DNA from: Eledone cirrhosa
Taxonomy: Eukaryota
DNA: 64,000 nucleotides
NCBI GenBank assembly: GCA_964016885.1
Contig: OZ024740.1
Coordinates: forward strand, 372,186,001-372,250,000
Direction: 5' to 3'
Shown: positions 17,932 through 51,616 of the stretch, piece by piece
How the letters are laid out: every line of letters begins with the position of its first letter
Numbering within the stretch: the first letter of the stretch is position 1
The notes under the pieces: model-generated
Seen by the model: the letters and a program-made list of their open reading frames with translations, nothing else
What the model was told of the DNA's origin: nothing
Databases searched by the model: none
Program-made: the position numbers and the translations under genes

Positions 17932-18562
17932 TGAAATATATATATATCACAGCATTATTATTAAAGGACTTAGGGCGGTGGATTGGCAGTATCGGTAGAG
18001 GGTCGGACGCCATGCTTTCCAGCATAGTTACGTCCCTTTACGATCTGAGTTCAAATCCCGCCGAGGTTGACTTTGCCTTTCATCCTTACGGGGTCGATAA
18101 AATAAAGTACCAGTAATACACTGGATAATTGCTGGCCTTGTGCCAAAAAGTAGAAACAATTATTATTAAAGGACTTGAACATCTGAAAATACTTCGCTTT
18201 TCCTTATTCTATATATATATATATATATATATAGTAGAATAAATATGGTTTTATAAATATAGTTTCCACCTATTTAATATCATTGAATATTATACCCCAG
18301 AAAAGTTGTCGAGTGCTCTGAATCAGTTATAAACATTTATATTTGTTGGATTACCAACAAATTGAATATCCCTTTTGCTTATATTTATATTATTTGTTTC
18401 TTAAAATAAAATAATATATATAGAATAAGTAAAAGCGAAGTAGTTTCAGATGTTCAAGTCCTTTAATAATAATGCTGTGATATATATTTATGTTGAAATA
18501 TATATCACAGCATTATTATTAAAGGACTTGAACATCTGAAACTACTTCACTTTTACTTATTC
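17932..18562. repeat. Triplicated approximately 70-bp unit in +/-/+ orientation, including a hairpin at 18423-18562
   Basis: The unit tatcacagcattattattaaaggacttgaacatctgaaa..tacttc.cttt..cttattc occurs at 17945-18210 (split by the SINE), inverted at 18420-18485 and direct at 18500-18562. Confidence 0.85.
17972..18160 (+). mobile_element. Full-length tRNA-headed SINE with target-site duplication
   Basis: A box tggcagtatcgg and B box gagttcaaatcc. The central block gactttgcctttcatccttacggggtcgataaaataaagtaccag resembles the Meta/MESC SINE domain as I recall it. It has an (ATT)n tail and the TSD attattattaaaggactt (17954-17971 / 18159-18176). Confidence 0.9.
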
Positions 18563-25537: not shown

Positions 25538-25552
25538 TCTAAAATATATATT

Positions 25553-29037: not shown

Positions 29038-29173
29038 ATTATGAATGTAGAAAGGAAGTCCTTGAAAGGATTAAAATGCCATGTTCGTGCCACCCATGTA
29101 TGAGAAAAAGGTCAAAGGATAGCAGTTCTCAAAAACAAGATGGAGCCATTATATATGTATGTATGTATGTATG

Positions 29174-29207
<34 letters not shown>

Positions 29208-29234
29208 TGTATGTATGTATGTATGTATGTATGT

Positions 29235-31551
29235 ATGAGGAACTCAGGGATGTAAAATCACGTGTTAGGCGGAGTCTTTCTCAGATGAAGGATCAGTGGT
29301 GGAGTGAGAAGGCTGGTGAGATACAAACTGCGTCTGATTCCAATAACACAAAGCTGTTGTACAGTCTCTTGCGTGAGGTTTATGGACCGTCTTCTTCTCT
29401 GGTGACACCGCTTCGCAGCAAGGATAGCAAAGAACTTCTTTGTGACTCACAAGGAATTCTACGAAGGTGGCGAGAGCACTTTGATGATCTTTTGAATCAG
29501 CCGTCTGTCGTCAGTGAAGATTTCCTCAATCTCATTCCAGGAAGTCCTGTGAAAGTAGCTCTCGCAGAACCTCCGACGCTTGTGGAGGTTGCAATGGCTA
29601 TTTCGAAGCTGAACAGTGGAAGATCTCCAGGTATGGATGGCATACATGCTGAGCTCCTACAATATGGTGGTGAGAGACTTCTGCAACATCTTCACTCTTT
29701 GTTTGGCAGGATATGGGCTAAGGAATCCGTACCTGAGGACTGGAGAGATGCAGTAATGGTGGTCTTGTACAAGGGAAAGGGTAACAGGAACGTTTGTGGG
29801 AACTACAGAGGTATATCATTGCTTTCTGTCGTAGGGAAAGTTTTATGTAGGGTGCTTCTGGGCCGTCTGCTGACACACATTGCAGATTGTGTTCTTCCTG
29901 AAAGTCAATCTGGTTTTCGTGCTGGACACGGCACTACTGATATGATCTTCTCAGCTAGACAGCTCCAGGAGAAGTGCATGCAACAAGGCTTGGATCTGAA
30001 TCAGGTTTTTGTCGATCTGACAAAAGCTTTCGATACTGTTAACAGAGATGCATTATGGAAGGTTCTCCAGAAAATTGGTTGCCCTGATAAGTTCCTTGCT
30101 TTAGTTAGGTCTTTCCATGACGACATGAAGGCTTGGGTTAATGTCGGGGGTAACATGTCGGAGCCTATCTCAGTAAAAAATGGAGTGAAACAGGGGGATA
30201 TTCCAGCACCGACCCTGTTTGCCATATACTTTGTAATGGTTTTGTGTATTGCATTCAGGAATTGCGAGCATGGTGTTTACATCCGATATCGAACCTCAGG
30301 CAGCATATTTAACATCAGGCGCTTTGCTGCGAAGACAAAAGTATTTACATCAATCATAAGAGACCTCTTGTATGCAGATGATTGCGATCTTGTAGCGCAC
30401 ACAGAGAGTGATATGCAGCACATTTTGAATACATTTTCTGACGCTTGCACTGCCCTAGGTCTGACTGTCAGTCTCAAGAAAACCGTCGTCATGTACCAAC
30501 CTGCCCCTGGTAAGCAGTACACTGAACCAAACATCTATGTGTATGGCAAACGACTTGGAGTGGTTGATCAGTATGTCTACCTGGGAAGCACTGTCAATCG
30601 ATACAGCAACCTTGACAGTGAAATCTCACTTAGGATTAGGAAAGCAAGTGATGCTTTCGGAAAGCTAGAAAGGCGACTCTGGGGTCGGCGAGACATGTGC
30701 AGGAGGACAAAGGTAAAGGTGTACAGGGAATGTGTGCTCTCTTGTCTTCTTTATGCCTGCGAGACCTGGGTCACATATCGACACCACCTTAAGCAATTGG
30801 AGCGTTTCCATCAGATGTGTCTCAGACGGATCCATGGCGTTCACTAGAGGGACCACATCAGTGATGTCGAGATTTTGGAAAGCTCTATGTGTGACAGTAT
30901 AGAAGCTCTTGTGCTTAAGCAACGACTCCGTTGGAGTGGTCACCTTGCCGGGATGGAGGATTCTAGAATACCAAAACAACTCTTTTATGAAGAGTTGGTT
31001 AAAGGAAAACGACGCCACATAAACCAAAAAAGAGGTATAAGGATTCCTTGAAAGCCTCTCTGAAAGACGCTAACATCTCTGCTGATACATGGGAGAATAT
31101 TGCTGCTGATCGTAATAATTGGAGAAAGATTGTATATGAGGGAAAAGTTGCCTTTGAGGCTTCTCGAATCGCATACGAGAAAGTAAAGTGGGATGTGAGA
31201 AAGGGCATTACTGTTGCACTTCCAGACGGCGAGGGTCCTCCTATGGTGCTGACATGCAGTGTATGTGCGAGACTCTGCCTAAGCAAAGCTGGACTCGAAA
31301 GTCATCTTCGCAGTCATAAAGTAAGACCAGTGGTTGACTACCAGGCTGATGTTGGAGATGCTACTCATCATGCTTGCCAAACATGTGGTAGAGAATGTAA
31401 ATCAGCAGGAGGGCTCAAGCGACATGCAAAAGTACACGAACTCCAACCACAGCCGGCTATTCCCAGTGAATGTTTTGGTTGCCGACTCTGTGCAAGACAT
31501 TTTAGATCATTGGCTGGGCTAAAAAGCCACATTCGATCGCAGCGCTGTTAA
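29235..31551 (+). pseudogene. RTE RT ORF with three C-terminal C2H2-type zinc fingers
   Basis: TAG at 30845 where Trp is expected, and a frameshift near 31015. Fingers CSVC..HLRSH, CQTC..HAKVH and CRLC..HIRSQRC. The MYVC N-terminus in the ORF track is microsatellite. Confidence 0.92.
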
Positions 31552-31560
31552 TTGCTATCG
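29235..31560 (+). mobile_element. 5'-truncated RTE-clade LINE joined to a (TATG)n tract
   Basis: RT motifs SPGMDGI, NYRGISLLS, QSGFR, FVDLTKAFDTV, GVKQGD and YADD, followed by RLRWSGH..R.PKQ. The APE domain is missing. Confidence 0.95.
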
Positions 31561-31844
31561 TGTGTGTGTGTGTGTGTGTGTAGATATGCTTATGTGTGTG
31601 CGTGTGTGTGTATATATATATGTATATGTATATTATTATTGTTGTTGTCGTTATTATTATTGTTGTTATGATTATTATTATTATTATTGTTATTAATGTA
31701 TGTGTGTGTGTATATGTGTGTGTGAGTGTGTGTGTGTGTGTGTATATGTGTATGTATATGTGTATGTATATGTATATATATATATATTTCTTTTTTTGTA
31801 TTTTTATTTTCTTTTTATTTATTTATTTATTATTATTATTATTA

Positions 31845-34800
31845 CAGTTGCATTTATCTTGCTTTATGTTCATAGGAGTTATCACCAAGTCACAACCAGT
31901 GACCTCAAGAGACAACAAGGTCCGCCATGTTCAAGAAAGAACATACATACTCACACATGCATCTTTAGTGTTTAGACTTGTGATGTACTTATATTGACAG
32001 AATCTTCCTTAGTATATGGGCAGTTCCCATTAGTACTATCTTTTGTATTTCTCCTATACGCGGGTTTCCTGGGATTTGCGATAAAGTAATCATTAGACCC
32101 CTTAGGTATCATTCCCAGAGCGCCTACAACCACTGGTATTGTTTTAGTTCTCAATTTCCACATTATTCCAATTTCTATCTGCAGGTCCTTATGCTTGCTC
32201 AATTTTTCAAATGTTTTTATAGATACATTCTTGTCTATTGGAACAGACATATCAATTAGCAGGCATACCCTCTTTTGAAAGTCCTTCAATATTATATCAG
32301 GTCTATTTGCATCTATTTTTCGGTCTGTTTGGATGCTAAAGTTCCACAAGATTGAGATGTGATCTTTTTCAAGTATGGGAGGTGGTTGATGCTCCCACCA
32401 ATTCTTTTGATGGGGCAGATCAAAATGCTTACACATTATCCAATGTATGTATTGTGCAGCTCTGTCATGCCTGTTTACGTATTCGGTTGGAGCTATTGAA
32501 ATTATTATAACTGCACATTGAAATTATATGGTCAATGGTCTCTGGTTGTTTTTTGCATACACGGCATAATGGGCTGCATCCATTTTTTATTATGTTGGCT
32601 CGGTAATTTTTTGTTGGCAGACACTGATCTTGTGCTGATATAATCAGTCCTTCAGTCTCCGATTTCAGTCCAGAGGATGCCAACCACTGATGTGTTAAAG
32701 TTTTGTCAACATCAGGATTGTTAGCTCGCTCTGGGTATTTTCCATACAGAGGCTTTTCTTGCCATTTCTTAGCCAGTTTCTGTAGCAGTTCTTTCTTTGC
32801 AGTTACTTTTACCTGCTTTGCTTTTTCTGTGTTTTCCATTTCAGCAGTAAATGGGACTTCTGAAATTTGGAGTCCATTACTGTATCTTTGTGCATCTTTT
32901 GTAATGGAATATGATCTTTTGATGCTTTCGTGTTTCAAAACGAGTTTGATCATCCAATCATGTGATTCCCTTAGATATGTAGATAATCCAATTGTTGCAG
33001 TTTTCAACGCAATGTCTAACTGGATTAACCCACGTCCTCCTTCTTTCCTAGGGAGATATATTCTATCTATATCTGCCTTAGGGTAATGCATTCTGTGCAT
33101 GGTTAAGGATATTTTCGAATTTTTGTATCGAGCCTACGGATCTCTGTGCTTGACCAGTTGATGACATTGTAACTAGGTTACTACTGGTATGGCAAGCGTG
33201 TTTATGGCATCGATCCTATTCCTTGCATTCAATTCCGTTCTTAAGATTGCTCCTACTCTGCGGTAACATTCCTTCCTTATCCTTTCCCCCATTGTCGAGT
33301 GCTTGATTCCGTCTCCTTCACAAACACCTAGATATTGTAAGTTTTTTCTTGATCAAGTTCTCTTATCACGTTCCCCCGATCAAGATTAATGTCTGAACTC
33401 TTCAGCAGCTTTCCTCTGGTGAACGTTGCTTTGGCGCATTTATCTAGTCCAAACTCTATTTTAATGTCATCACTGAACTGCTCCACAGTGGATAATAGCC
33501 CTTGCAATTGTTCATCATTTTTTGCAAATAGTTTCAGGTCATCCGTGTAGAACAGGTGATTAATGGTTTTGTCATAGACTCTATATCCATGTTTTGTTTC
33601 ATTGAGCATTTTACTTAATGGTATAAGTGCGATGCAGAATAAAAGCGGTGATAAAGAGTCACCCTGAAAAATTCCACAATTAATATTAACTTCTCCAGCT
33701 TCCAGTGATTTTGTTTCACTATTCAAAAGGAGTGTCGTTTTCCATGTCTTCATACTGAATGACAAAAACCTCCTGACAACGGGGGATATTTTGAAAATCT
33801 CTAAACATTTTTCAATCCAACTGTGTGGCAAACTATCGAATGCTTTTTTATAATCTATCCAAGCAATCGATAGATTTTTGTGTCTATTATGACAATCTTC
33901 CAGTATCATTTTGTTAACTAGATGCTGATCCTTACAGCCATATGAGCCTCGTTTACACCCTTTCTGCTCAATGGGAAATAGGTCATTTGTTATCAGGTGG
34001 TCATATGTGTATTCAGTTAGGACTGATGTTAAAATTTTATACATTGTGGTCAAGCAAGTTATCGGTCTGTAATTTTTGGGATTGTTTGTCTCATCATTCT
34101 TCGGAAGCAGGAATGTAATGCCGTTAACTAGCCATGATGGTGTCTTTTCTGGCTCCTTAACTATTTCATTGTAAAGTTGGGCTAACAGCTCATGAGACTC
34201 TGTGAAGGCATTTATCCAAAAGTTTTGTATTTTGTCTTTTCCTGGGGATTTCCATTTGCTGGTTTTTCTTAGAGCGAAGGCGCAACTGTTCAACTGTTAT
34301 ATTTTCCCATATTTATTCCTCAAGGTGAGCTGTATCTTTCATTTGTCTGTCTATCCATGGGGCATGTATGTTATGAACTTTTTCTTCGGCCCAGATCTTT
34401 TCCCAGAATTCTTGCACTTCCTCCTTGGGTGGTATTGATTTAGCAGTTATTGTTGACTTACCAATTTTTCTGTAGAAGTTTCTTTGGTTGTTTTTGAACA
34501 TATTATTGTCCTTATAGAATCTAGATCGTTTTTCAAAGCGCCTTATACGAGCAGCTTTGGCCGACACTTTTTGCTTGATTATTTCTATCAGCATGTCTAT
34601 GTCACATTTTGATTTTATACTGTACTTTTTTTTCAATTTTCTAAGTTTAGTTTGTTTAACATGTTCACCTACTTTATAGTTTGTTAAAATTTCTATGTCA
34701 GATCGGAGAAGGTTTATTTGGCGATTGATGTTCTCTTGCCAAGTAGATTTCTTGTGGGAATTCCTTTGTTTTTTCATCTTCACTCCACATAAGTGAGTGG

Positions 34801-36726
34801 TGACTTTAGCCGATGCATAATAGAGATGATTTAAATCAGTAATGTTTAGTTTGTTTGTGATGATAATGTTTTTGAGAATTATGTTAGTCTTGTGTATTAT
34901 CTTTTGGCTCTGTTTGGAGTTCTGGATCTTAGGGAGGGTGTCTCGTTGCCCCATGTCAGATTCTTTCTTTTTCATCCATTCGATCATAATTTCATCCTTC
35001 AAGTTGGCAAGTTCATTCTCATTCATTTCTTTATTATTTACGATCTCATTATTTTCATTTGGAGTTTCATCCTGAGCATGCACTCCCTCCACTTTTTCGA
35101 TCCTTTCTTTAATTTGTTCTGTTGCCAGTGATTCCGCCCCAACCCTGGGATTCGAAGTGTTACAGTTTACCTCGTTTTCACTGACACATATTTCATTTTC
35201 CCTTCGCTGACTTTGTGCTAATAGCTTGATCTGATCAATTTCTATATCAGTTAGTAACTTTTTTCTTACAATATTTCTTCGTATATTGGCTAGTTTGTTA
35301 CTGTCAATATAGCCTCTGTTTTCGGGATGTTTCTTTTTCCAGTTGATATATGTCTGTTCTGTATTCGATGTATTTGATGGGTAGTACATGGCAGTGTAGA
35401 AAGCCTCAAGGAGTTCTTTATTATCTTCCCTTGACCATTTTTCTCTCTTTTTCTGTGGATTTCTTGGTGGTGAGCATGGAGGGCCAACAGTAGGAGTATT
35501 CCGGTTATGGGAGGTCTCCAGCTCCGAAGTGATGGTAAGGTTTGAACCATTAGCTGATTTTTCGACCCCATTCTGGTTCCTCTCTGAGGGACGCGGCCCT
35601 TTTTTACCCGGGTGACGGCCGATCCGGTATGAGATTTTATCATTAGACATTTACTTTATTTTGTCGCGTTTTATCCTTATACGCCAAGGGGTAATCATTT
35701 CGTGTTACCACTTCTAGAACGAGTGTCAACCAAGACTAGAGGGGTCGTTCTCCCCTAGAGACACGGCTATTCCCCGCCGGCCACCATCCCGGTATTTCTT
35801 GGTCACGGGGTTTTCTCTTTGTTGTTTTTTTTAAATTGTTATTATCATGAGTGGTTCCTTAATGTGAGCATTGCGTGGCTTAAGAATGAAATTATTAATA
35901 ATTGTCTCCACTCCAGGCACAAGGCCAGCAATCACCCAGTGCATTACAATAATATAATATACTTTTTGCTGAAGTTACCTGTTATTGTTGTTGGCTATGT
36001 CGGTGGTGGTGCCGGGGCTTTTTATATTGTTGGTGAGGAAGGGGTGAGCCAGCAGTCGCATAGTTGTTGATGTTGACGTTTGGCCGGTGGCCAGGTCACT
36101 AAGTCAATCTATTTATATCTTTTGCTAGCTTCTCCCTTGTCTAGTGATACCGCCACCTTCCCCTTTCTCTCTCAAGTTAACAGGGGAATAGTGGTGGTAG
36201 CAATGATGGGGTGATGGCGGCGGTGGCATTGTCATTACTGAGTTTTGTGATGTAGTATCTATGAGTTTGTGTTCGTATGTTTAATATATATTGTGTTGAC
36301 ATATTCCCGTAAAGTTGGGATTAAACATTTTGTTAAAACTTGAGACAATAATAATAGTAATTATTATTATGATGCTGGGATTGATGGTGGTGGTGGTGAA
36401 ATTGCCGTTATCTGGCTGTTATATTTAGTGTGATGGGATAGGTGGTGTATCAAGTTTCTGGTGTTGGTGAAATTGCTGTTATTTGGCTTTTCTATATAGT
36501 GTAGACAGAGGGTGTTTTCTTTCATTTATAACCATTTTCTTTTTTTGAATACAAAATATATAATACAAAATTGAATATTTGAGCGATATAACAATATAAT
36601 ATGGATCCGAAATTTTATGGGACTTCATTCGGTGGTTTATGCAACATTTGTACTAAGAATTGTTAAATATTTTAAAAATCAAAAACTTACGGGAGCGATT
36701 TCATGACCTTCTACCACCTCGTGCGT
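31845..36726 (-). mobile_element. R4/Dong-clade non-LTR retrotransposon, copy 1
   Basis: Single RT+REL ORF with a 3' end abutting (TAA)n on the element strand. Colinear with 45814-50713 over its whole length. Confidence 0.93.
31989..35650 (-). pseudogene. R4/Dong ORF (RT, CCHC finger, restriction-like endonuclease), frameshifted
   Basis: KWKSPGKD, NYRPITCL, WIDYKKAFDS, GIFQGDSLSP, FYTDD (FYMDD in copy 2), CRVC..ETIDHIISMC and RPDI..ID..K..K. At least four frame breaks. Confidence 0.93.
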
Positions 36727-36786
36727 CTTCTTCTTCTTCTTCTTCTTCTTCTTCTTCTTCTTCTTCTTCTTCTTCTTCTTCTTCTT

Positions 36787-36885
<99 letters not shown>
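36727..36885. repeat. (TTC)n(TTA)n compound microsatellite between Dong and Tx1 elements
   Basis: Directly visible. Confidence 0.98.
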
Positions 36886-39857
36886 GAATGCCATGGTTGA
36901 CGGAGGCTCGGCTCTGTAAGGTATAGTAATTTTTAACCGTTAAAACAATTGTAAATTGTTTAAAACTTGAACCAAATTGTTGATAAAGACACCCTCCTCC
37001 TCCTGAGAGGGGTCTTTCTGTCCGTTATTTGGCCCTTCGGGGTTAAATAACCAGTTATTGGGGTTTTGTACCCAAAATTTCATTTTAAACAAAAAAACAT
37101 GGCTACGAAAAAGAAATTTCATACGTCACTCCCACTCATTCCGTCTTCTTCTTCCTCAATCATCACTACAGCAGAGAGAAGATTGTCTCTCTCCCTCCCT
37201 TCTTTAAATGTGTCTCTCTCCCTCCCTTCTCTTTCGCAAGCGACGAAAGAAAAGAAAAGTCTCGTGCAAAGCGTGCAAGGTTTCTCCACGACGACGACGA
37301 CAGCGACGAAACAGGTGTGCGGGAAATACGAAAACCCAGTTCATTCGTCTGACGTCAGGAATAATAGCAGTAGCAGCCGTAATAACAACAGCAACAGTGA
37401 CAATGAAAACAACAGTAGCAGCCGCAACAGCATCACCAGCAGCATAAACAACAACAGCATTAGCAGCAGCAACACCAACAACAACCACAGCAACAGCGGC
37501 GGAGGCAGTAGTCGTAGTACCTGCAGCAACAACAAAAGTACCAGCAGCTCTGACGACAACAACAACAGCAGAGAAAAACCAATCTCATTTGCAGGTATTG
37601 CGAAAAACTTGGAAACAATCCTCATAACAAATGAGGAATTAGAGGAAGCGAAGAAGATGGTGACAAAGAACGGACACCGAGCAATCTGCAAGGCAGCGGA
37701 AAAATTTTTCGAAACCCAAGAGCACTGTACGGTCACGTACCGTACAGTAAGTACAAAATCCCGTAGGGTGGAAAGAGCCACAGAGGCCCAAATACAAAAA
37801 GCCTTGGGGTCTGTGTGGCAGCGGAAAACGCACATCACCCGAGGCAAAAAATATGCCACCGTAGACGTACTTTTTGCCACACCCCAGGAGGCAAAGGCCC
37901 AATCAGTAATGACTCTAAGGAGCGAGGAAATGGTGTTGGTGCCCTCCTACTGTGGGCAAAAAATTGTGAGGGTCAAACTGACCCACGTCCCCCCCGGAAT
38001 GACCCCTTCTTGGCTGGCCGCGTCTGTCCTCGTCGGAATCGAGGACAAAACAACTGTACTGCAAGTACAGAAAAAAGTAAGAGAAGATTGGGTCGGCTCC
38101 TCCATTGAGATGCTAATCCAAATCAACCAGGAGTGCATCGAAGCTATCCCGGATGTGATAGACTTCGATAACGGCACTCAACTGCCCATAAGTGTTGAGG
38201 GCAAACGCCCGAAATGCTTTCGCTGTGGATCGAAGACTCACCTCAGGGCCTTCTGCAACGAGAAGACCCTGAGAAAGGAGAAAACCCCCCTCCTTCCGAA
38301 TCCGGCTCCACGGCTACCAGCAACAGGACAAGCGGCAACCAGGAACGATAGGCCCGTGGCACCCATACCCACTCCACGGAAATCAAAAACAGCAGCAGCA
38401 GTGGAAATACTAACAACAACAACAGCAATACCAAATGCAGCTGCAACAGAGACTCCAGTGCAAACATCACCAACAACAACAAGTGAAAGAGTGGAGCTGG
38501 TACCCCTCCCCGACCTCACAGAATCAGACATGGAGTGTGAGGTGGGAGAGAGATGGCAAAAGGTCGTAAGAAGGCACAAACGCAGAAGCAGCGCATCGTC
38601 GCCTTTGAAAAGGGAGGAAAGAAATGAGAAAAGGGTAAAGTCTACTGCAAAGAGACCCACAGCAGCAACAACACCAACACCATCACCACCCACACTAGCG
38701 CCACCATCACCACCGGCGACAACCCCACCGCCAACAACACCTTCAACACCACCACCACAAGCACCAACATCGCAAACACAACAACAAAACACACACACCC
38801 AGCAACAACGACAAGAAAATAGCAGAACCACACCCCACCCCCAGAAAAACAAATGCACGGCAATAAATACACACAACAAGAAACTGATGACTTACATAAT
38901 TGAACACACAGACATTTCACAACAGGACTACATAATACCAGCACCAATCAAAACGCCAACTAACATAAGACTGCTAAAAATAGCACAGAAACAATACACA
39001 AATATTAAAACGAAATTCCCCAACGCAGTTGGTGATTTCAGGGACCTAGAAGGAACCATCAATCGAAGAGTATACTCAGACATTCTCTTAGAAGAGCCGT
39101 CGACCAGCCGAAGGGACGATTCAACGGTCCCTTCACCAGACGATCAAGTGAAAAGGGATGTAAAAACCATCCCTCCTCTACCAAAAGTACGGTAAGTGGT
39201 CTTTCCCATCTTTTCCACTCTATTTTAAACATGACCTCACTCAGAATAGGCAGCATAAATGCGCGTGGCTTGGGGTCGTCATGGAAGCAGGGTCACCTGC
39301 TCAACGACCTCCTTCGTGAGGATTGCCCCGCCCTCCTCCTTTAGCCGGGAAGGGCAGGCAGTTTTTATCTGCCTGGTGGCCATGGTGAAAGAGATAGTAT
39401 GGTGGACACGTTTGAAAGGGCTGAAGACGAGCACTTACCTCTTCGGTGATGCTCTGATTGACTTTTTCAAATTTCATTTGAAAAGGAAAATCAGAGTAGA
39501 GAGGGAAGTGCTCTCTTCCCAGCATTTTGTTGAAAGATGGGTGAGAGAAGCAAGAATGGCCCGAGTGAATGGGCGTTCTCTGAGTATATATCTGTAAATT
39601 AAAGGTGGAAAACTGGGAGAGGGCACTTGCCTTGGTGGTCAGGGTCATTGTGGCTTTTTACTGGGATTTCTCCACAAATGTCCCTCCGAAGTCTACCCCC
39701 TATTGGGGAATTTTTCATTGTTATTTTCATTGTTATTTTTGTTACATCCTCTGTTTTTGTTTTTTTACACGCAGAAATGCCCATTTGTACCGTCCTGCAT
39801 TGTCCTGCACTGTCCTTAATGTCTACTTTATGTAAACCCTTGTGGTTAATAAAGAAA

Positions 39858-39859
<2 letters not shown>
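36886..39859 (+). mobile_element. Tx1/L1-clade element A: ORF1-only (HAL1-like) derivative with about 3.05 kb of ORF2 deleted
   Basis: Flanked by (TTA)n. The ORF2 start (39231-39311) is fused to the ORF2 end (39312-39597). The 3' UTR ends aataaagaaatc, as in element B. Confidence 0.9.
37099..39195 (+). CDS. Intact Tx1-type ORF1p (698 aa; low-complexity arms, conserved core, CCHC zinc knuckle)
   Basis: ATG in aaaaaaacATGGCT context and an uninterrupted frame. It contains CFRCGSKTHLRAFC (CX2CX4HX4C) and is homologous to element B ORF1. Confidence 0.88.
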   Translation: MATKKKFHTSLPLIPSSSSSIITTAERRLSLSLPSLNVSLSLPSLSQATKEKKSLVQSVQGFSTTTTTATKQVCGKYENPVHSSDVRNNSSSSRNNNSNSDNENNSSSRNSITSSINNNSISSSNTNNNHSNSGGGSSRSTCSNNKSTSSSDDNNNSREKPISFAGIAKNLETILITNEELEEAKKMVTKNGHRAICKAAEKFFETQEHCTVTYRTVSTKSRRVERATEAQIQKALGSVWQRKTHITRGKKYATVDVLFATPQEAKAQSVMTLRSEEMVLVPSYCGQKIVRVKLTHVPPGMTPSWLAASVLVGIEDKTTVLQVQKKVREDWVGSSIEMLIQINQECIEAIPDVIDFDNGTQLPISVEGKRPKCFRCGSKTHLRAFCNEKTLRKEKTPLLPNPAPRLPATGQAATRNDRPVAPIPTPRKSKTAAAVEILTTTTAIPNAAATETPVQTSPTTTSERVELVPLPDLTESDMECEVGERWQKVVRRHKRRSSASSPLKREERNEKRVKSTAKRPTAATTPTPSPPTLAPPSPPATTPPPTTPSTPPPQAPTSQTQQQNTHTQQQRQENSRTTPHPQKNKCTAINTHNKKLMTYIIEHTDISQQDYIIPAPIKTPTNIRLLKIAQKQYTNIKTKFPNAVGDFRDLEGTINRRVYSDILLEEPSTSRRDDSTVPSPDDQVKRDVKTIPPLPKVR

Positions 39860-39892
<33 letters not shown>

Positions 39893-40102
39893 GGCGACCT
39901 ACGTAGGAAATCGTATTATCGTGAGCTCCGCAAAGGTTTGTTATTTCCGTTTGTTTAAAAATTGCCATTTATGGAAAATTTTATTGTAAACTGTTTATAA
40001 GCACACATACATTGTTTTCCGAAAAGGACACCCAAAAAGATTGGGGCCTTGTGCCCAAAATTTTAACTTTTATTATTATCCAAAAATTTCTTTGAAAAAA
40101 AA

Positions 40103-42087
40103 ATGGCTAATTCCCCTCTGCACGAAGCAGCTAAAAGCCTTCCTCACAAAATAACACCTCACACCGACACCTCCATTGCAAATGTTACTACGTTTGCCAA
40201 CACAAAAAAAAAATATAAGCAGTAGCAATATTTTAAATTTGTCTCAGGCAGACATTCATTTCCCGCCATTACCAATGACTGCAGGTGTTAAACCCTCCAC
40301 CACCACCACCACCGCAACAACCACCACCACCACCACCACCGCGACAACAGAAACAAAAGAAGAAAAAAATAAATTAACTCGTGACGTCGAAATGAAATCA
40401 AGCAAAATGGACTCTTCCCCACCAAAGACGACTGACGTCACAACCACCACAACTGAAAATAAAATTAATATTAACGATAGCAACAACAACAACAATGACA
40501 TTATAAAACCGACCCTCAGTTTCGCCATCGTAGCAAAACAATTCGAAGCGTTCACGGTAACCCAAGAAGATTTAGAAAATGCCAAACAAATGGTAAAGAA
40601 AGATGGGTACAGGGTCAGCCTCACCCCCCCACCTAATAAAATGGAGCATCGGCGCCTGTGCACCGTGTCGTATAGAACAATAAATGTAAAATCGCGCCGA
40701 GTGGAACGGGCATCCGAGTCCCAAATCCAAAAAGCTTTGGGACATGTGTGGGCAAGAAAAACCCACATCAGACGTGGGCAAAAGTATGGAACCGTGGATG
40801 TGTTCTTTGAAACACCAGAGGAGGCTAGAGAACACTCCATGGCCCCATTAAAAAGTGACGACCTCACACTCGTCCCAAGCTATTGTGGCCAGAGACTCGT
40901 AAAGATCAGGGTGACCCACGTTCCACCGGCCATCGAAATTCCCTGGCTAATAGCGGCTGTCCTCACCGGCATCGAAGCCAACACGAAAATAATAGCAGTA
41001 GCAAAAGAAAAGCAGGAAGACTGGTCCGGATCTGGGATGGAGCTCCTGATCCAAGCGGACCAAAAAAGCATTGAGGAGATCCCAGAGGTAATAGACCTCA
41101 CTGACGGCAGCCACCTCACGGTAATTGTCGAGGGCAGAAGACCTAGGTGTGTCGTTTGTGGTGAAGGAACCCACCTAAGGGCTTTCTGCCCTCAGGCTAA
41201 AAGGTTGAGGCCACCTCTCCTACCCACCCCAGTGACAAAACCATCAACACCACCAGTAGCAGAGATGGCAGCAACAACTGTAGCAGCAACAACAGAAGCA
41301 ACTATAACAGCAACAACCCCAGCAACAGTAGCAAAACCAACACCACTACCACCACCAGCAAAACCAACACCACCACCACCCAACGCTTCAGAACTAGCAC
41401 CAGCGCCTACACCATCCACCACACCACAACCAAAACTAACGGCTGTGGAGGATTTTCCACTCCCCGGCCTATCACAACTGGAGACAGATTGTGACGACGA
41501 GGAGTGGGAAACGATATCCGGAAAAAAAAAAGAAACCAAAAAAGAAAAAATTCTCTTCCTTCCCCCTCCAAAAACAAAATACAGAGGGAAACAAATAAAC
41601 TAAGAAACAAAAAAGTTAGGACAGATATGCCACCATCCACACCAGCATCACCAACCCCATCAACCCAAACACCAACACCATCACCATCATTATCCCCAGC
41701 ACCACCATCACCTACACCACAAAATCACCAAAATTCGAAACAGAAACAAACCCACAACAAACGCAAACAAAACAAAACAACCAAAACGATACACACTACA
41801 CAGCATTAAATTTGAACAACAAGCAATTATTACACTACATCCAACACAACACCAGCATCACAGAAAAAGACTACACAACAACCCCAAAATTCACACCACC
41901 TCCACACATACAAATCACTCGCATCACACAGAAAACGTACATGACACTAAAACAAAAATTCCCCAAAGACATCGGAGACTTCCGACAAGCACTCTCCAGG
42001 AGGATTTATAAGGACATCCTTCCTGAGGAGGCCACAAACAGTGAAAAGGATGGAAAAGCCGTCCTTCCCCTACGAGAAGTAAGGTAA
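40103..42087 (+). pseudogene. Tx1-type ORF1 with frameshifts
   Basis: ATGGCT at 40103 and CVVCGEGTHLRAFC. Frame breaks near the A-runs at about 40205 and 41525, and near 41800. Confidence 0.85.
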
Positions 42088-42121
42088 GTGGTCTTTCCCA
42101 TCTTTTCCACTCCTTTTGAAC

Positions 42122-45100
42122 ATGACCTCACTCAGAATAGGCAGCATAAATGCGCGTGGCTTGGGGTCGTCATGGAAGCAGGGCCACCTGCTCAACGACC
42201 TCAGGTCACTAAACATAGATGTAGTGGCCATCAGCGAGACCAGAATCTCCGAAGCACAGGGTTTCGCACCGATCTTCGGCGGCTACGATGTGTACGCATC
42301 TCCCAGCCGTCCGGGATCGGGGGGAGGAGTTGCTGTGCTTTTTCGGAGAGGTTTGGATCTTGCCATACGGGCCATCTTCCTGGACCCAGAAGGTAAGTTG
42401 GTGGTGCTGGACGTGACCAACGGAGACGGGCAAGCTTTCAGGTTAGTGGCCGTCTATGCCCCGACAGGAGCAGGGCGGCCTGATTTCTTCCGGCGTCTGG
42501 AGACCTTTCTTGGAACGTCCCGCTCTTTAGTGTTAGTGGGCGACTGGAACGGGATCTTAGATGCACGCTGGGATTGTGTGGGATTAGTGGATAGGGAAGG
42601 AGGGTGAAAGAGTCTCACCAACCTGCTCAGACGTTTTGAACTGTCTGACAGGTACCGAATGGATTTCCCGAATGTACCAATGTGGACTTGGACAAATCGC
42701 AAAGGGTCATCCAGATCATATCTAGATAGAGTATTTTGTAGGGAAATAGATAGGTCTAGCATAGGCTGTCCACAATTCAAGATAGTCAGCTACACGGACC
42801 ACAAATTCGTGATCTGTGTGCTTGACTTAGATAGGCTTCATAGACGAGGACCCGGCTACTGGAAGCTAAACGCGTCCTTACCAGCGCGCAAGGCCTACAG
42901 AGACCGGATTAGCGAACTAGTTAAGCGGGCGTTGACGGGGGCCATCGTCAACAACAAGTGGTGGTTTGCTCTGAAAAGAGCAATTAGAATAGAGTCCATT
43001 AGGTTTAGTAAGACTTTAGCAATAGAGAAAAATAGAGCAGAGGGAGAATTAGTTAGAAAATTAGATGAGGCGCTTAGCAAAGGCATCGCGACCGACGTAC
43101 TTGCGGCGAAATTGGCCCTTGACCAATTCTTCAATGCAAAGCACGAAGGCTGCGTTGTCAGAGCTAGGGTGCGTGCTCTCAGACACGAGGGGACGAAAGC
43201 CGTTCAATGGGCCCGAGTGGCGGAGGCGCGTCGTGGCAACAAAGCCACGATCCGGTCTTTGGTGGACCACGACGGGCGTATGCTACTCGATCCCGGGCAA
43301 ATGTGTGAAGCTTTTCAGCGACACTTCGCTCAACTGTTCGGGGGCAGTGGCGGGCCGGATCGAGGGATGGACTTTAGTGTCTACCTCGACGGACTGCCGC
43401 GGCTTTCGGCCACTGAGGCGGAGTGTTGCGAAAAGCCGATAACAACCGCTGAAGTACGGGATGCAATGACTAGTTGCACAAGGGGCAAATCGCCTGGTTT
43501 GGATGGTCTGCCCTATGAACTTTACGTACAAATGCCAAACTTGTTCGGAGGCCTCTTGGCGGACGTCTACTGCAACTGGCAACAGAACGGGAGAATTCCC
43601 AGCTCTGTGAGCCGAGGAGCGGTGGCGCTGCTGAGAAAGGATCCGAACAAGGGGGATAACATAGATAATTTTAGGCCCATAACTCTGCTAAACACAGAGT
43701 TCAAGATTTTGGCCAAGGTGCTAGCAAAGAGGTTGGCGCTTGTCGTTGGTGGTCTGGTGGGAGAGGCACAGACATGCGCCATTCCCGACAGATCCATCCA
43801 CGACAACCTCCACCTCATGCGATACATCGTAGAGAGGGTAGCTAGGGAACCTGGCACGGGTGGGTCTTTGATCAATTTAGATTAGTCGAAAGCCTTCGAT
43901 AGGGTCGACCATCGTTACCTAGCGGCAGTCCTGAGGGCGGTTGGCTTTGGGCCCGTCTTCAGAGGCTGGATCGCTGCCATGCACAGCGACATCTGCTCTG
44001 TAGTGAGAGTCAACGGTCACCTTTCGGAACCGTTCAACATCATGCGCTCAGTCCGCCAAGGATGTCCCCTCTCGTCCCTATTGTACGTATTGACTCTCGA
44101 GCCATTACTGCACAAACTGGAGACGTTGAGGGGGGTCCCGCGCGAACTAGGATGCGGAAGATCCGTGTCAGCATATGCCGACGATGTCACCGTAGTGGTG
44201 TCGAGCGCCAAACACATCGAGGCGATCGGCACTACACTAAGAGAATACGAAGCGGTGACAGGAGCAATGATCAACCAGGAAAAGTCAGTGGGCCTGCAGC
44301 TCGGCACCTGGAGAGGCAGGTCCATGCCGTCCAACAGCGTCGTCGGGCGCTGGACGGACGGACCGGTTAAATTGCTAGGGGTCTGGTTCGGTCCAGACCT
44401 CCAGACGGACAAAAACTGGGACGAGGTGACGAGCAGGGTGGCTTCTCTCACCCAGAAATGGGCCGAGAGGAAGCTATCCCTGAAAGGTCGAGCGGAGGTG
44501 GCGAATGCGTACATCGCATCCGTCATCTACTACCGCCTGACCGTCGTACCTTGTCCTAAGCCCGGCCTGACTGCGCTGGAGCGTTTGCTCTTTCGCTTCT
44601 TGTGGAAGGGACGCGCTCCGATGGTCAGGCGGTCCATCTGCTGTCAACACCCGCTACGTGGAGGGCTGGGCATGCCGTGGCTGATGATGCGCAGACACGC
44701 GCTCAGGCTACGACATCTCCACCTTTTCCTCGACGGTGATCAGGTGTGGTCGCCGTTTGCAAGACACGTTTTTCCCCAGCTCGTCTCCTTGACGGAGCTG
44801 CAGTCCTGGGTCAAGCGAAGACCGAGAGGGAGCGCTTGGAGACTGGAATGTCTTCAGGCGCTCACAGCCCTCGACCAATCGGGCAATGTGATCGGTGGAA
44901 ACTCCACCTTGGCGTTCTATAGGGGATTAGTGGAGGGAAAGAGCGACGACGTACTTGGAGAAACTCTAGGCGTCGACGAAAATCAACTAGCCAATCTCTT
45001 CGGAAGGACTTTCGGGCCGGGGCCTATGGACAACTTCCAGAAATCCCTGGCCTGGCAGTGCTACCGAGGAGCTTTGCCAGTTCGGGATAAACTCTACAGG

Positions 45101-45540
45101 CATGGAGGTACCGTCAGACGGGCATGTCCGAGATGCGCGCAGGGCGACGAAACCGTCCTGCACGCACTCGTCCAGTGTCCGAGCATTGCTGACTTGTGGG
45201 TTTATGTCGACACCTGCTGTCACGTGTAGGACGGATCCAGCTATCAGCTGAGTCCATCGTGAGGATTGCCCCGCCCCCTTCCTTTAGCCTGGAAGGGCAG
45301 GCAGTTTTTATCTGTCTGGTGGCCATGGCGAAAGAGATAGTATGGTGGACACGTTTGAAAGGGCTGAAGACGAGCACTTACCTCTTCGGTGATGCCCTGA
45401 TTAACTTTTTCAAATTTCATTTGAAAAGGAAAATCAGGGTAGAGAGGGAAGTGCTCTCTTCCCAGCATTTTGTTGAAAGATGGGTGAGAGAAGCAAGTAT
45501 GGCCCGAATGAATGGGCCTTCTCTGAGTATGTGTCTGTAA
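42122..45540 (+). pseudogene. Tx1-type ORF2 (APE endonuclease + reverse transcriptase)
   Basis: SINARG, ISET, VYAP, GDWN, SYLDRV, TDH, WKLN, KSPGLDG, FRPITLLN, D*SKAFDRV, VRQGCPLS, YADD and CPRC..ETVLHALVQC. In-frame stops at 42605 (TGA) and 43883 (TAG), and a frameshift near 45210. Confidence 0.95.
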
Positions 45541-45782
45541 ATTAAAGGTGGAAAACTGGGAGAGGGCACTTGCCCTGGTGGCCAGGGCCACTGTGGTCTT
45601 TTAATGGGCTTTCTCCACAAATGTCCCTTGGAAGTCTCCCCCCTATTGGGGAATTTTTCTTTGTTATTTTATTTCAACCTCTGTTTTTTTTACACGCAGA
45701 AATGCCCATTTGTACCGTCCTGTATTGGCCTGTACTGTCCTTAATGTCTACTTTATGTAAACCCTTGTGGTTAATAAAGAAA

Positions 45783-45813
<31 letters not shown>

Positions 45814-45814
<1 letters not shown>

Positions 45815-48800
45815 TGCATTTATCTTGCTTTATGTTTATACGAGTTATCACCAAGTCACAACCAGTGACCTCAAGAGACAACAAGGTCCGCCATGTTCAA
45901 GAAAGAACACACATATTCACACATGCATCCTTAGTGTTTAGACTTGTGATGTACTTATATTGACAGGATCTTCCTTAGTATATGGGCAGTTCCCATTAGT
46001 ACTATCTTTTGTATTTCTCCTATACGCGGGTTTCCTGGGATTTGCGATAAGTAGTCGTTAGACCCCTTAGGTATCATTCCCAGAGCGCCTACAACCACTG
46101 GTATTGTTTTAGTTCTCAATTTCCACATTTTTCCAATTTCTATCTCCAGGTCCTTATACTTGCTCAATTTTTCAAATGTTTTTATAGATACATTCTTGTC
46201 TATTGGAACAGACATATCAATTAGCAGGCATACCCTCCTTTGAAAGTCCTTCAATATTATATCAGGTCTATTTGCATCTATTTTTCGGTCTGTTTGGATG
46301 CTAAAGTTCCACAAGATTGAGATGTGATCTTTTTCAAGTATGGGAGGTGGTTGATGCTCCCACCAATTCTTTTGATGGGGCAGGTCAAAATGCTTGCACA
46401 TTATCCAATGTATGTATTGTGCAGCTCTGTCATGCCTGTTTAGGTATTCGGTTGGAGCTATAGGACTGCACATTGAAATTATATGGTCAATGGTCTCTGG
46501 TTGTTTTTTGCACACACGGCATAATGGGCTGCACCCATTTTTTATTATGTTGGCTTGGTAATTTTTTGTTGGCAGACACTGATCTTGTGCGGATATAATC
46601 AGTCCTTCAGTCTCCGATTTCAGTCCAGAGGATGCCAACCACTGATGGGTTAAAGTTTTGTCAACATCAGGATTGTTAGCTCGCTCTGGGTATTTTCCAT
46701 ACAGAGGCTTTTCTTGCCATTTCTTAGCCAGTTTCTGTAGCAGTTCTTTCTTTGCAGTTACTTTTACCTGCTTTGCTTTTTCTGTGTTTTCCATTTCAGC
46801 AGTAAATGGGACTTCTGAAATTTGGAGTCCATTACTGTATCTTTGTGCATCTTTTGTAATGGAATATGATCATTTGGTGCTTTCGTGTTTCAAAACGAGT
46901 TTGATCATCCAATCATGTGATTCCCTTAGATATGTGGATAATCCAATTGTTGCAGTTTTCAACGCAATGTATAACTGGATTAACCCACGTCCTCCTTCTT
47001 TCCTAGGGAGATATATTCTATCTATGTCTGCCTTAGGGTGATGCATTCTGTGCATGGTTAAGAATTTTCGGATTTTTGTATCGAGCCTACGGATCTCTGT
47101 GCTTGACCAGTTGATGACATTGTAACTGTAGGTTACTACTGGTATGGCAAGCGTGTTTATGGCATCGATCCTATTCCTTGCATTCAATTCCGTTCTTAAG
47201 ATTGCTCTGACTCTGCGGTAACATTCCTTCCTTATCCTTTCCCTCATTGTCGAGTGCTTGATTCCGTCTCCTTCACAAACACCTAGATATTTGTATGTTT
47301 GTTCTTGATCAAGCTCTCTTATCACGTTCCCCCGATCAAGATTAATGTCTGAACTCTTCAGCAGCTTTCCTCTGGTGAACGTTGCTTTGGCGCATTTATC
47401 CAGTCCAAACTCCATTTTAATGTCATCACTGAACTGCTTCACAGTGGATAATAGCCCTTGCAATTGTTCATCATTTTTTGCAAATAGTTTCAGGTCATCC
47501 ATGTAGAACAGGTGATTAATGGTTTTGTCATAGACTCTATATCCATGTTTTGTTTCATTGAGCATTTTACTTAATGGTATAAGTGCGATGCAGAATAAAA
47601 GCGGTGATAAAGAGTCACCCTGAAAAATTCCACAATTAATGTTAACTTCTCCAGCTTCCAGTGATTTTGTTTCACTATTCAAAAGGAGTGTCGTTCTCCA
47701 TGTCCTCATACTGAATGACAAAAACCTCCTGACAACGGGGGATATTTTGAAAATCTCTAAACATTTTTCAATCCAACTGTGTGGCAAACTATCAAATGCT
47801 TTTTTATAATCTATCCAAGCAATCGATAGATTTTTGTGTCTATTATGACAATCTTCCAGTATCATTTTGTTAACCAGAAGCTGATCCTTACAGCCATATG
47901 AGCCTCGTTTACACCCTTTCTGCTCAATGGGAAATAGGTCATTTGTTATCAGGTGGTCATATGTGTATTCAGTTAGGACTGATGTTAAAATTTTATACAT
48001 TGTGGTCAAGCAGGTTATCGGTCTGTAATTTTTGGGATTGTTTGTCTCATCATTCTTCGGTAGCAGGAATGTAATGCCGTTAACTAGCCATGATGGTATC
48101 TTTTCTGGCTCCTTAACTATTTCATTGTAAAGTTGGGCTAACAGCTCATGAGACTCTGTGAAGGCATTTATCCAAAAGTTTTGTATTTTGTCTTTTCCTG
48201 GGGATTTCCATTTGCTGGTTTTTCTTAGAGCCAAGCGCAGCTGTTCAACTGTTATATTTTCCCATGTTTGTTCTTCAAGGTGAGCTGTTTCTTTCATTTG
48301 TCTGTCTATCCATGGGGCATGTATGTTATGAACTTTTTCTTCGGCCCAGATCTTTTCCCAGAATTCTTGCACTTCCTCCTTGGGTGGTATTGATTTAGCA
48401 GTTATTGTTGACTTACCAATTTTTCTGTAGAAGTTTCTTTGGTTGTTTTTGAACATATTATTGTCCTTATAGAATCTAGATCGTTTTTCAAAGCGCCTTA
48501 TACGAGCAGCTTTGGCCGACACTTTTTGCTTGATTGTTTCTATCAGCATGTCTATGTCACATGTTGATCTTATACTGTACTTTTTTTTCCAATTTTCTAA
48601 GTTTAGTTTGTTTAACATGTTCACCTACTTTATAGTTTGTTAACATTTCTATGTCAGATCGGAGAAGGTTTATTTGGCGATTGATGTTATCTTGCCAAGT
48701 AGATTTCTTGTGGGAATTCCTTTGTTTTTTCATCTTCACTCCACATAAGTGAGTTGTGACTTTAGCCGATGTATAATAGAGATGATTTAAGTCAGTAATG

Positions 48801-50713
48801 CTCAGTTTGTTTGTGATGATAATGTTTTTGAGAATTATGTTAGTCTTGTGTATTATCTTTTGGTTCTGTTTGGAGTTCTGGATCTTAGGGAGGGTGTCTC
48901 GTTCCCCCATGTCAGATTCTTTCATTTTCATCCATTCGATCATAATTTCATCCTTCAAGTTGGCAAGTTCATTCTCATTCATTTCTTTATCTTTTACGAT
49001 CTCATTATTTTCATTTGGAGTTTCATCCTGAGCATGCACTCCCTCCACTTTTTCGCTCCTTTCTTTAATTTGTTCTGTTGCCAATGATTCCGCCCCAACT
49101 CTGGGATTCGAAGTGTTACAGTTTACCTCGTTTTCACTGACACATGCTTCATTTTCCCTTCGCTGACTTTGTGCTACTAGCTTGATCTGATCAATTTCTA
49201 TATCAGTTAGTAACTTTTTTCTTACAATATTTCTTCGTATATTGGCTAGTTTGTTACTGTCAATATAGCCTCTGTTTTCGGGATGTTTCTTTTTCCAGTT
49301 GATATATGTTTGCTCTGTATTCGATGTATTTGATGGGTAGTACATGGCAGTGTAGAAAGCCTCAAGGACTTCTTTATTATCTTCCCTTGACCATTTTTCT
49401 CTCTTTTTCTTTGGATTTCTTGGTGGTGAGCATGGAGGGCCAACAGTAGGAGTATTCCGGTTATGGGAGGTCTCCAGCTCCGAAGTGATGGGAAGGTTTG
49501 AACCATTAGCTGATTTTTCGACCCCAGTCTGGTTCCTCTCTGAGGGACGCGGCCCTTTTTTACCCGGGTGACGGCCGATCCGGTATGAGATTTCATCATT
49601 AGACATCTACTTTATTTTGTCGCGTTTTATCCTTATCCGCCAAGGGGTAATCTTTTCGTGTTACCACTTCTAGAACGAGTGTCAACCAAGACTAGAGGGG
49701 TCGTTCTCCCCTAGAGACATGGCTATTCCCCGCCGGCCGCCATCCCGGTATTTCTTGGTCACGGGGTTTTCTTTTTGTTGTTTTTTTTAAATTGTTATTA
49801 TCATGAGTGGTTCCTTAATGTGAGCATTGCGTGGCTTAAGAATGAAATTATTAATAATTGTCTCCACTCCAGGCCAGCAATCACCCAGTGCATTACAATA
49901 ATATAATATACTTTTTGTTGTAGTTGGCTGTTATTGCTGCTGGCTATGTCGGTGGTGGTGCCGGGGCTTTTTATATTGTTGGTGAGGAAGGGGTGAGCCA
50001 GCAGTCCCATAATTGTTGATGTAGACGTTTGTCCGTGGCAAGGTCACCAAGTCAATCTATTTATATCTTTTGCTAGCCTCTCTCTTGTCTAGTGCTACCA
50101 CCACCTTCCCTTTTCTCTCTCAAGTTAACAGGGGAATAGTGTCAGTAGCATTGAATGAGTGGTGGCGGCGATGATGGATGTGGTGAGGTGGTGGCAGCGG
50201 TGGTGTTGTGGTTACTGATATAGTATCTATGAGTTTGTGTTCGTATGTTTAATATATATTTTCATTATATTTTGTGTTGACATATTCCCGTAAAATTTGA
50301 ATTAAACATTTTTTTAAATTTGAGACATTTTTTTAAATTTGAGACAATAATAATAGTAATTATTATTATGATGCCGGTGAAGTTGCCGTTATATTTAGTG
50401 TGATGGGATAGGTAGTGTATCAAGTTTCTGGTGTTGGTGAAATTGAAATTGCCGCTGTTCTATATAGTGTAGACAGAGGGTGTTTTGTTCCATTTATAAC
50501 CATTTTCTTTTTTTGAATACAAAATATATAATACAAAATTGAATATTTGAGCGATACAACAATATAATATGGATCCGAAACTTTATGGGACCTCATTCGG
50601 TGCCTTTATGCAACATTTGTGCTAAGAATTGTTCTTTCACAATTGATTTAAATATGTTAAAAATCAAAAAACTTACGGGAGCAATTTCGTGACGTTCTAC
50701 CACCTCGTGCGTC
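45814..50713 (-). mobile_element. R4/Dong-clade non-LTR retrotransposon, copy 2
   Basis: Near-identical to copy 1, with (TTA)n at both flanks. Confidence 0.93.
45955..49606 (-). pseudogene. R4/Dong ORF (RT + REL), nearly intact
   Basis: One frameshift at the T-run near 48585 and one stop at 46870. FYMDD, CCHC, RHD and PD..D..K..KY motifs are intact. Confidence 0.95.
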
Positions 50714-50764
50714 TTCTTCCCTTCTTCCCTTATTATTATTATTATTATTATTGTTATTGTTATT

Positions 50765-51102
50765 CCTTGAATCTCAGTCATTGATGTTGGTTAACTGGAA
50801 AGTCCGTTGGATTGAATATCAAGCCACTACCTGCAGCCTCAGATATTCAGGACGTATCGGAGGGTTCTTGCCGTTCCAAGCAAGCATGCCTTTTGAAGCG
50901 TTCCAAAAAGCGTGAAGGGGCCGATTTTCTTTAACCATCCCTGGAAACCTTTGGAGATAGTCCCCAGTGCGCCTATGACAATCGGGATCACTTTGACTTC
51001 ATGGCAGTTCCAAATCCTTTTCACCTCCCACTTTAGGTCCTGGTATCGGTTAATTTTCTCCCTCTCCTTCTCTTGCACTCTCGTGTCGAACGGGCAGGCC
51101 AC
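50765..51102 (-). mobile_element. 5'-truncated fragment of a second R4/Dong family (REL C-terminus + 3' UTR)
   Basis: VACPFDTRVQEKEREKINRYQDLKWE..VIPIVIGALG..LQKACLLGTARTLRYVL, with (TTA)n on both sides. Confidence 0.88.
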
Positions 51103-51139
<37 letters not shown>

Positions 51140-51151
51140 TCTTTCTCCTCG

Positions 51152-51212
51152 TGCAATGGCCATACTCGATAACGAGGGGGCAGCCATCATCATGTATATA
51201 TGTATGTATGTA
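51152..51212 (+). mobile_element. Isolated RTE-type 3' terminus with (TATG)n tail
   Basis: tgcaatggccatactcgataacgagggggcagccatcat, containing the ctcg-ataa-cgag hairpin. Nearly identical to 52866-52905. Confidence 0.65.
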
Positions 51213-51616
51213 TGTTCTTCTGGTTTTATAATTTTATAATTTGTTGTCAATAGAGAGAGAGTGGGTTTCTAACATAGACACAAGACTCTCTCATTGAAAT
51301 GTACACAACATCAACTAGCTAGATATGTATCCATGTCTGCATGCATGCATGTGTGTGCAGGTATGGATGTTATTGTAGGTGTGGGTGTGTATGTTTGGGG
51401 TTGTATGTGTGCATGTGCATATGCTTTGTATATGTACATGTGTATATGCAGTTATTAGATGCAGAATCTTTGGAATGTTTTACATATTTCCACTGTTCCA
51501 TTTATTCATTGTACTTGTAATTTCCTAACTAGTCGTTAATGTATGTATGTATGTATGTATGTATGTATGTATGTATGTATGTATGTATGTATGTATGTAT
51601 GTATGTATGTATGTAT

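Follow-up and report, generated by a model that had tools for sequence, protein, structure and literature searches.

Microsatellites and other sequences reported as targets of the Tx1 group of long interspersed nuclear elements (LINEs), in the available parts of two publications, comprise (TC)n, (TTC)n, (TTCC)n, (TTTC)n, U2 and transposons; Kibi occupies (TC)n and Koshi (TTC)n in fishes, and crocodilian Tx1 elements lie in (TTCC)n/(TTTC)n (PMC4494074, PMC3812793). Dong of Bombyx mori (R4 clade), as well as DongAg and DongBg, is described there as inserted in (TAA)n (PMC3812793). Here we analyzed 64,000 nucleotides of the Eledone cirrhosa genome (contig OZ024740.1, positions 372,186,001 to 372,250,000, forward strand; called the window below), in which five elements are stacked in the order Dong (-), Tx1-A (+), Tx1-B (+), Dong (-) and a second R4-like family, R4b (-). 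This arrangement had been described in an earlier note on the same DNA, and its elements, their order and their strands were confirmed. We consider it probable that a Tx1-like lineage enters (ATT)n in one direction and two R4/Dong-like families enter it in the other, owing to nicks on opposite strands, with the repeat left on both sides of each insertion.

Compared with Kibi and Koshi as far as these are described in the sources above, the elements studied here are likewise LINEs with two open reading frames (ORFs), an apurinic endonuclease-like (APE) domain and microsatellite-specific insertion, whereas they differ in their (ATT)n target, in the A-rich strand that appears to be nicked, in their octopod host and in sharing the target with an unrelated clade; this is a comparison of described targets and organization. 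The target is not the (TC)n or (TTC)n of the Kibi/Koshi group, and (TTC)n adjoins only two of the 26 truncated copies. The R4-like elements resemble the published description of Dong in having a single ORF with a reverse transcriptase (RT), a C-terminal CCHC and a PD-(D/E)xK-type motif, and (TAA)n flanking full as well as truncated copies at either end, a likeness of organization; the difference is that two families with 39% amino acid identity coexist here and share tracts with an opposite-facing Tx1-like lineage. Tx1-Mar and SINEU of crocodilians also represent a Tx1 group and a short interspersed nuclear element (SINE) with a common target inside another mobile element, with tandem insertions flanking a duplication, but the target in the available description is a Mariner sequence (PMC4494074). 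In the present genome, the shared target is a microsatellite that occurs in several hosts, among them the untranslated regions (UTRs) of an RTE-type LINE. An octopus RTE element with a microsatellite-rich 3' UTR (PMC9115989) is similar to the host LINE of the present stack, whose 3' UTR consists largely of microsatellites; here the UTR repeats were shown to receive other LINEs, of which the available part of PMC9115989 makes no mention.

A literature search that included the accessible parts of PMC4640811, PMC3747384, PMC13282606, PMC9115989 and PMC8967140, with Repbase outside its reach, found neither an ATT-targeting Tx1 nor a shared target. Cephalopod repeat papers, in the parts available, report both Dong-R4 and L1-Tx1 to be abundant and to have been active recently, with targets not given. 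Microsatellite-targeting Tx1 and TAA-targeting Dong elements were known before; the ATT target specificity, with its unusual opposite-strand sharing by two clades and with a carrier element, is well supported and appears to be new. Such a system would give a further target to the LINE group whose targets are the most labile, and it would offer a natural case in which two unrelated nucleases, one APE and one restriction-like, act on the opposite strands of a single three-base repeat. Because naturally intact young copies of both exist, the source of microsatellite specificity (protein loop or RNA pairing) is directly testable. The system also explains a visible part of genome structure, with about 10,000 Tx1 ends and stacks of tens of kilobases, and ATT microsatellite markers often lie at element junctions.

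Flanks, orientation and target sites

The genome surveyed comprises 3.0 Gb. A 21-base pattern from the Tx1-B head had 2,315 matches, and 2,155 of these (93%) directly follow ATTATTATT, that is, exact (ATT)3 in a single phase (ATT|G). Since about 1.8% of random positions satisfy even a looser criterion (at least two ATT units within 6 bases), this junction is far beyond chance. ATT tracts precede each of the 30 best-matching Tx1-B heads (one being the window copy), each of 30 further heads taken in order of position and 20/20 Tx1-A heads (19 of them exactly at ATT|), and a third, unrelated Tx1 head likewise follows an ATT tract. Across all fetched loci (designated by L numbers), the junction reads ATT| at 152 of 154 heads, which belong to three unrelated types. 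The 3' ends were sampled by a shared 3'-end 20-mer, which has 9,775 genome matches; from the first 100 matches on one contig (C1), 80 of 96 covering regions yielded 82 distinct ends, of which 2 belonged to another subfamily and could not be aligned, 48 reached the full head and 32 did not. Six of the latter were dropped: two belonged to other subfamilies and were recombinant or deleted, one lay at a region edge, one had an internally deleted head, one was a duplicate and one was interrupted by a SINE. All 48 full-length copies have 5' ATT. In line with the earlier note, both Tx1 elements of the window start with ATT|G and finish with AAATC|ATTATT, and among copies with both ends the head follows ATT| in 65/65 and the tail junction starts with ATT in 63/65.

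With regard to orientation, 134 of the 143 distinct Tx1 3' ends at all loci face ATT, none faces AAT alone, one faces both and eight face neither, so the random orientation that the earlier note had named as contrary evidence was not observed. The 3' ends of Dong (30/32) and R4b (74/76) at all loci face AAT, in agreement with the earlier reading that R4 elements end in (TAA)n on their own strand; moreover, 30/30 Dong heads follow (TAA)n and 16 truncated junctions of R4/Dong type lie within tracts. In 90 tracts sampled regardless of elements, 20/20 Tx1 ends are on the plus strand and 43/43 R4 ends on the minus strand, and thus 63/63 obey the same rule.

The stack, 19.3 kb in length, splits the 3' UTR of an RTE-type LINE that is itself truncated at the 5' end, a nesting that the earlier description did not include. 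Its flanks (31600-31844 and 51140-51192) are contiguous around one ATT tract, directly behind the RTE-type ORF, in L375 and L359. Because these empty paralogues hold the joined flanks around a single tract, the tract is older than the stack. Full-length RTE copies contain ATT tracts in their 5' and 3' UTRs alike. The RTE 3'-end motif has 6,887 genome matches; judged by reading, 17 of the first 30 copies have the ATT type of UTR, with R4b inserted in 1-2 of these 17, and the other 13 represent a second type that lacks a pure tract.

Imperfect tracts are duplicated on both sides of Tx1 in L146 (18 bp), L238, L125 and L260 (16 bp). The tracts upstream of Tx1 heads are rarely shorter than 5-6 units (3 of 154), a sharp lower limit that a duplication of 15-18 bp would predict. 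A partner SINE of 187 bp, whose 3' end resembles that of Tx1, is present in the window with an 18-bp target duplication starting with ATT, and its empty paralogous site is found at 18512-18529. Among 22 full SINE copies, ATT comes next in 20, and an informative duplication of 13-20 bp is seen in 11; 10 of these duplications start with ATT (shuffled pairs, 6.6%). This SINE is likely mobilized by the Tx1 protein. A search of Rfam found no family for it, and folding of the Tx1 and SINE RNA ends gave z-scores of -1.0 to +0.8, by which a conserved structure is unsupported.

Proposed mechanism and alternative explanations

In target-primed reverse transcription, the primer strand is the complement of the sense strand of the element. 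Under this model, the observed orientation would make AAT the primer strand for Tx1 and the SINE and TTA that for the R4 families, which fits the earlier claim that Tx1 primes from the strand opposite to Dong; the duplicated imperfect tracts and the SINE duplications likewise suggest that the AAT strand is the one nicked. We propose that the two strands are nicked by different enzymes, the AAT strand by the APE endonuclease of Tx1 and the TTA strand by the restriction-like endonuclease of the R4 families. The cut by the Tx1 protein would fall at a T^A step of the A-rich strand, and the resulting 3' end ...AAT could pair with AUU at the 3' end of the RNA and prime reverse transcription. Cleavage of the second strand about 13-20 nt farther along would duplicate a stretch of target of the same length. 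One tract would become two and occupied loci would keep gaining insertions, while fresh tracts may be spread by the RTE-type LINE (in both UTRs; the host here), by the ATT tails of a CR1-type LINE and by SINE tails. A broader proposal, for and against which we see about equal weight, is that an octopod-wide Tx1 lineage with an AAT-strand-specific APE endonuclease has converged on the Dong target and, together with the SINE and the ATT-bearing RTE, forms a self-feeding guild abutting about half of the ~62,000 long ATT tracts; a target shared in this way by two clades would be without earlier description.

Several observations weigh against strict targeting of (ATT)n. Of the 5'-truncated Tx1 copies, only 11/26 have 5' ATT under a strict criterion (at least two ATT units within 6 bases of the junction). 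The random 5' flanks that the earlier note had named as a refutation were not observed for full-length copies, in which the repeat precedes the head in fixed phase; the qualification concerns truncated copies. Two more truncated copies have ATT-starting duplications of imperfect tracts; other 5' junctions consist of (TTC)n in two cases, (AAT)n in one and unrelated DNA in about eight, some of the last probably being later deletions. As a control, truncated copies of another LINE, which we take to be of CR1 type, have an ATT tail in 11/11 and 5' ATT in 1/11, and the difference from truncated Tx1 gives a Fisher p of 0.06 under the strict criterion and 0.03 when the two duplication-bearing copies are counted. 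Phase is compatible at 12/13 truncated junctions with 10.3 expected, and microhomology, seen at 11/13, makes this phase test uninformative. In addition, imperfections early in the 3' tract lack a duplicate in L122, L142, L221, L273 and L278, and therefore the duplication length varies or the tracts changed later. The SINE is inserted at as few as one or two ATT units, even within Tx1 (L129, L283), and the nuclease may therefore be looser than (ATT)n, with room for RNA pairing to sharpen its specificity. The CR1-type elements and the 15/26 truncated Tx1 copies without strict 5' ATT would also suit an explanation in which (ATT)n is a mere 3' tail, insertion is random and stacks survive in safe regions. 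This is extremely improbable, since the census of 5' flanks, with its single phase, refutes it for full-length copies, orientation is strict and the tract is already present in the empty paralogues. A different possibility is that specificity lies mainly in RNA-DNA pairing: a loose nuclease would act at sites resembling ATT, and an (AUU)n run produced by read-through at the 3' end of the RNA, possibly with AUU at the 5' end, would select or add the repeat and fix its phase. The small SINE targets, the microhomology and a fixed phase proven for full-length copies only speak for it, but the 3' flank is merely ATT or ATTA followed by other sequence in L221, L236, L253 and L278, so a long tail is not obligatory; the duplicated imperfect tracts derive from the target, among 66 Tx1 copies with both ends, not one lies inside the body of another LINE (as represented in the LINE library of this analysis), and the endonuclease loop is conserved. 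We regard this possibility as unlikely, though by no means negligible.

Clustering itself might suggest that tandem duplication, or unequal crossing-over at ATT tracts, was the main source of arrays. Successive Tx1 3' ends lie within 15 kb in 38 of 99 cases (3.4% expected), 34 of them on the same strand; L285 and L287 have the same upstream Dong junction, and 3 of 16 neighbor pairs are at least 99% alike, which is a further point against independent targeting. Nevertheless, the median identity of same-strand neighbors equals that of distant pairs (94.5% in 16 pairs vs 94.2%, n=1,583), and families, heads and truncation points are mixed within arrays, which makes such an origin very improbable. 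As neighbors are no more alike than distant copies, arrays have mostly arisen from independent insertions.

The genome contains 62,065 tracts of (ATT)7 or longer (31,790, 13,708 and 16,567 in three classes). A class-weighted census of the first 30 tracts of each class (90 in total, clustered on C1 and not random) showed that 51% touch an end of Tx1, Dong or R4b, 29% doing so on both sides; RTE UTRs account for ~14%, CR1-type tails for 13% and SINE-adjoining tracts for 8-9%. Tx1 copies have a Tx1, Dong or R4b neighbor upstream in 43/66 and downstream in 35/66 cases, compared with 0.41 and 0.39 in the census. This enrichment is modest, and simple targeting of tracts, many of them from earlier insertions, therefore explains most stacking. 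The self-growing arrays of the earlier note thus stand insofar as neighbors are independent and about half of the sampled long tracts are abutted; self-regeneration is not the sole source of landing tracts, which come also from RTE UTRs, CR1-type tails and SINE tails.

Coding content and relationships

An intact ORF2 of 1,139 amino acids is present in at least six of the fetched Tx1 copies, and that of L130 matches Pfam Exo_endo_phos, RVT_1 and zf-RVT (N-terminal APE, RT and C-terminal CCHC). ORF1 contains a CX2CX4HX4C knuckle, read from sequence, which completes the two-ORF organization. Between Tx1-A and Tx1-B, ORF2 is 95-99% identical, whereas the 5' UTRs are unrelated and the ORF1s are 37% identical (36886-39195, 39893-42087; L111, L142, L146), which looks like repeated swapping of 5' modules near the ORF1/ORF2 border. 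Two further families, C (~76% RT identity) and D (73-75%), also end on ATT. In a quick tree of 39 rows, families A/B, C and D form one clade with an Argonauta protein, the nearest named relative of the Tx1 RT (73% identity), with support of 100. The RT scores 246 bits (41% identity) against a protein named by automatic annotation as "transposon TX1 uncharacterized 149 kDa protein", 116 bits against human L1 and about 80 against R2. Membership of the Tx1 clade is thus suggested by similarity scores and not by the tree, which has no L1, Kibi or Koshi rows and in which the link to the vertebrate TX1-named group is an unsettled fork. A hairpin loop sets specificity in L1-type endonucleases; here, the sequence of this region, NRIGSS, is the same in domains that share ~70% identity, whereas relatives outside the group have a different one. 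A search of PDB with the loop region alone returned only a chance match, and that of the ESM Atlas only generic APE-RT clusters. Tx1 head and tail sequences were also found in contigs (four runs) of three other organism labels, and these contigs end at the repeat; no RNA run was among the sequencing runs listed as containing them.

Dong and R4b each have a single ORF with an RT (Pfam), a C-terminal CCHC and an RPD...D..P..K motif read from translations, which we take to be of PD-(D/E)xK type; the Dong and R4 clade names are likewise our assumption. The two families group together with support of 100 in the quick tree. R4b was rebuilt from natural copies in the fetched loci, and the copy in L414 has an intact frame of 1,141 amino acids. 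A fixed length of 340 bp for R4b was considered and dismissed, as other copies extend to the full ORF. Every window copy of Tx1, Dong and R4b is damaged, and intact frames were found at other loci; the ORF2 of Tx1-B is 98% identical in amino acids to intact copies, and Dong-2 is 94% identical to Dong-1.

The host LINE, presumably of the RTE clade, is 96% identical to intact full-length copies in L427 and L428, and the former has a single frame of 1,212 amino acids with APE and RT domains, no separate ORF1 and a microsatellite 3' end. The end of the window ORF (31003-31551) has three to four C2H2-like zinc fingers, with Pfam scores near or below the cut-off. (TATG)n lies at the RTE 5' truncation point in three clear cases (29150-29237; L129, L410), and TATG/TA repeats follow the 3' end (51192-51215), which suggests an RTE-type LINE with a microsatellite preference of its own.

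Features of the window and minor observations

Table 1. Positions of the SINE, the host LINE and the stacked elements in the window
Feature	Coordinates	Strand	Remarks
Partner SINE	17972-18158 (with duplications 17954..18176)	+	Target duplication at 17954-17971 and 18159-18176
(TATG)22 tract	29150..29237	+	At 5' truncation point of host LINE
Host RTE-type LINE	29238..31826	+	5'-truncated; RT (Pfam RVT_1), C-terminal C2H2-like fingers, microsatellite-rich 3' UTR up to ATT tract
Original ATT landing tract, left half	31827..31844	+	RTE 3' UTR; flanks contiguous in L375, L359
Dong-1	31845..36725	-	Full-length R4/Dong-like LINE, ORF broken; RT, CCHC, PD-(D/E)xK-type endonuclease
(TCT)30, then (TTA)23	36726..36885	+	GAA-type runs at other Dong heads too
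Tx1-A	36886..39860	+	Head ATT|GAATGC
Tx1-A ORF1	37099-39195	+	Intact, 698 aa, CCHC knuckle
Tx1-A ORF2		+	~3.05 kb internal deletion near 39311
(ATT)n spacer	39861..39892	+	Between Tx1-A and Tx1-B
Tx1-B	39893..45784	+	Head ATT|GGCGAC; ORF1 frameshifted
Tx1-B ORF2	42122-45540	+	APE endonuclease, RT, CCHC; two in-frame stops and one frameshift
(ATT)10 spacer	45785..45814	+	Common to 3' ends of Tx1-B and Dong-2
Dong-2	45815..50729	-	Full-length R4/Dong-like LINE, ORF broken
(TTA)n spacer	50730..50764	+	Includes TTG-interrupted 3' end of second R4-like family
R4b	50765..51104	-	340-bp 5'-truncated 3' end of second R4-like family
Original ATT landing tract, right half	51105..51139	+	
Rest of host RTE 3' UTR	51140..51192	+	Then TATG-type repeats

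All spacers between the five elements read (TTA)n on the plus strand, as previously noted, with (TCT)30 preceding one of them as an expansion at a Dong 5' end. At Dong 5' ends, the element is separated from the TAA tract by variable runs of (GAA)n or (GGGAAGAA)n (36726-36816, 50706-50729; L083, L086, L095, L097), as if by slippage or repeated priming at the 5' junction. A 50-bp 5'-truncated Dong 3' end after (TTA)6 (63773-63840) obeys the same orientation rule.

Two exceptional Tx1 copies were seen: a truncated one whose 5' side is joined to an (AAT)n tract (L241) and an older one with an inverted 5' part (L142). Some 3' ends of the CR1-type LINE with (ATT)n tails are tandemly repeated (L325, L259, L291, L314), and in L259 a Tx1 lies between two such repeats. 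Pieces resembling the SINE tail occur within the 5' UTRs of Tx1-B (40045-40078) and Dong (about 35900-35950), and in L164 a SINE is inserted at this piece of Tx1-B. Outside the array, inverted SINE pairs and long TA-rich inverted stretches are present at 25352-25737 and 16673-17752.

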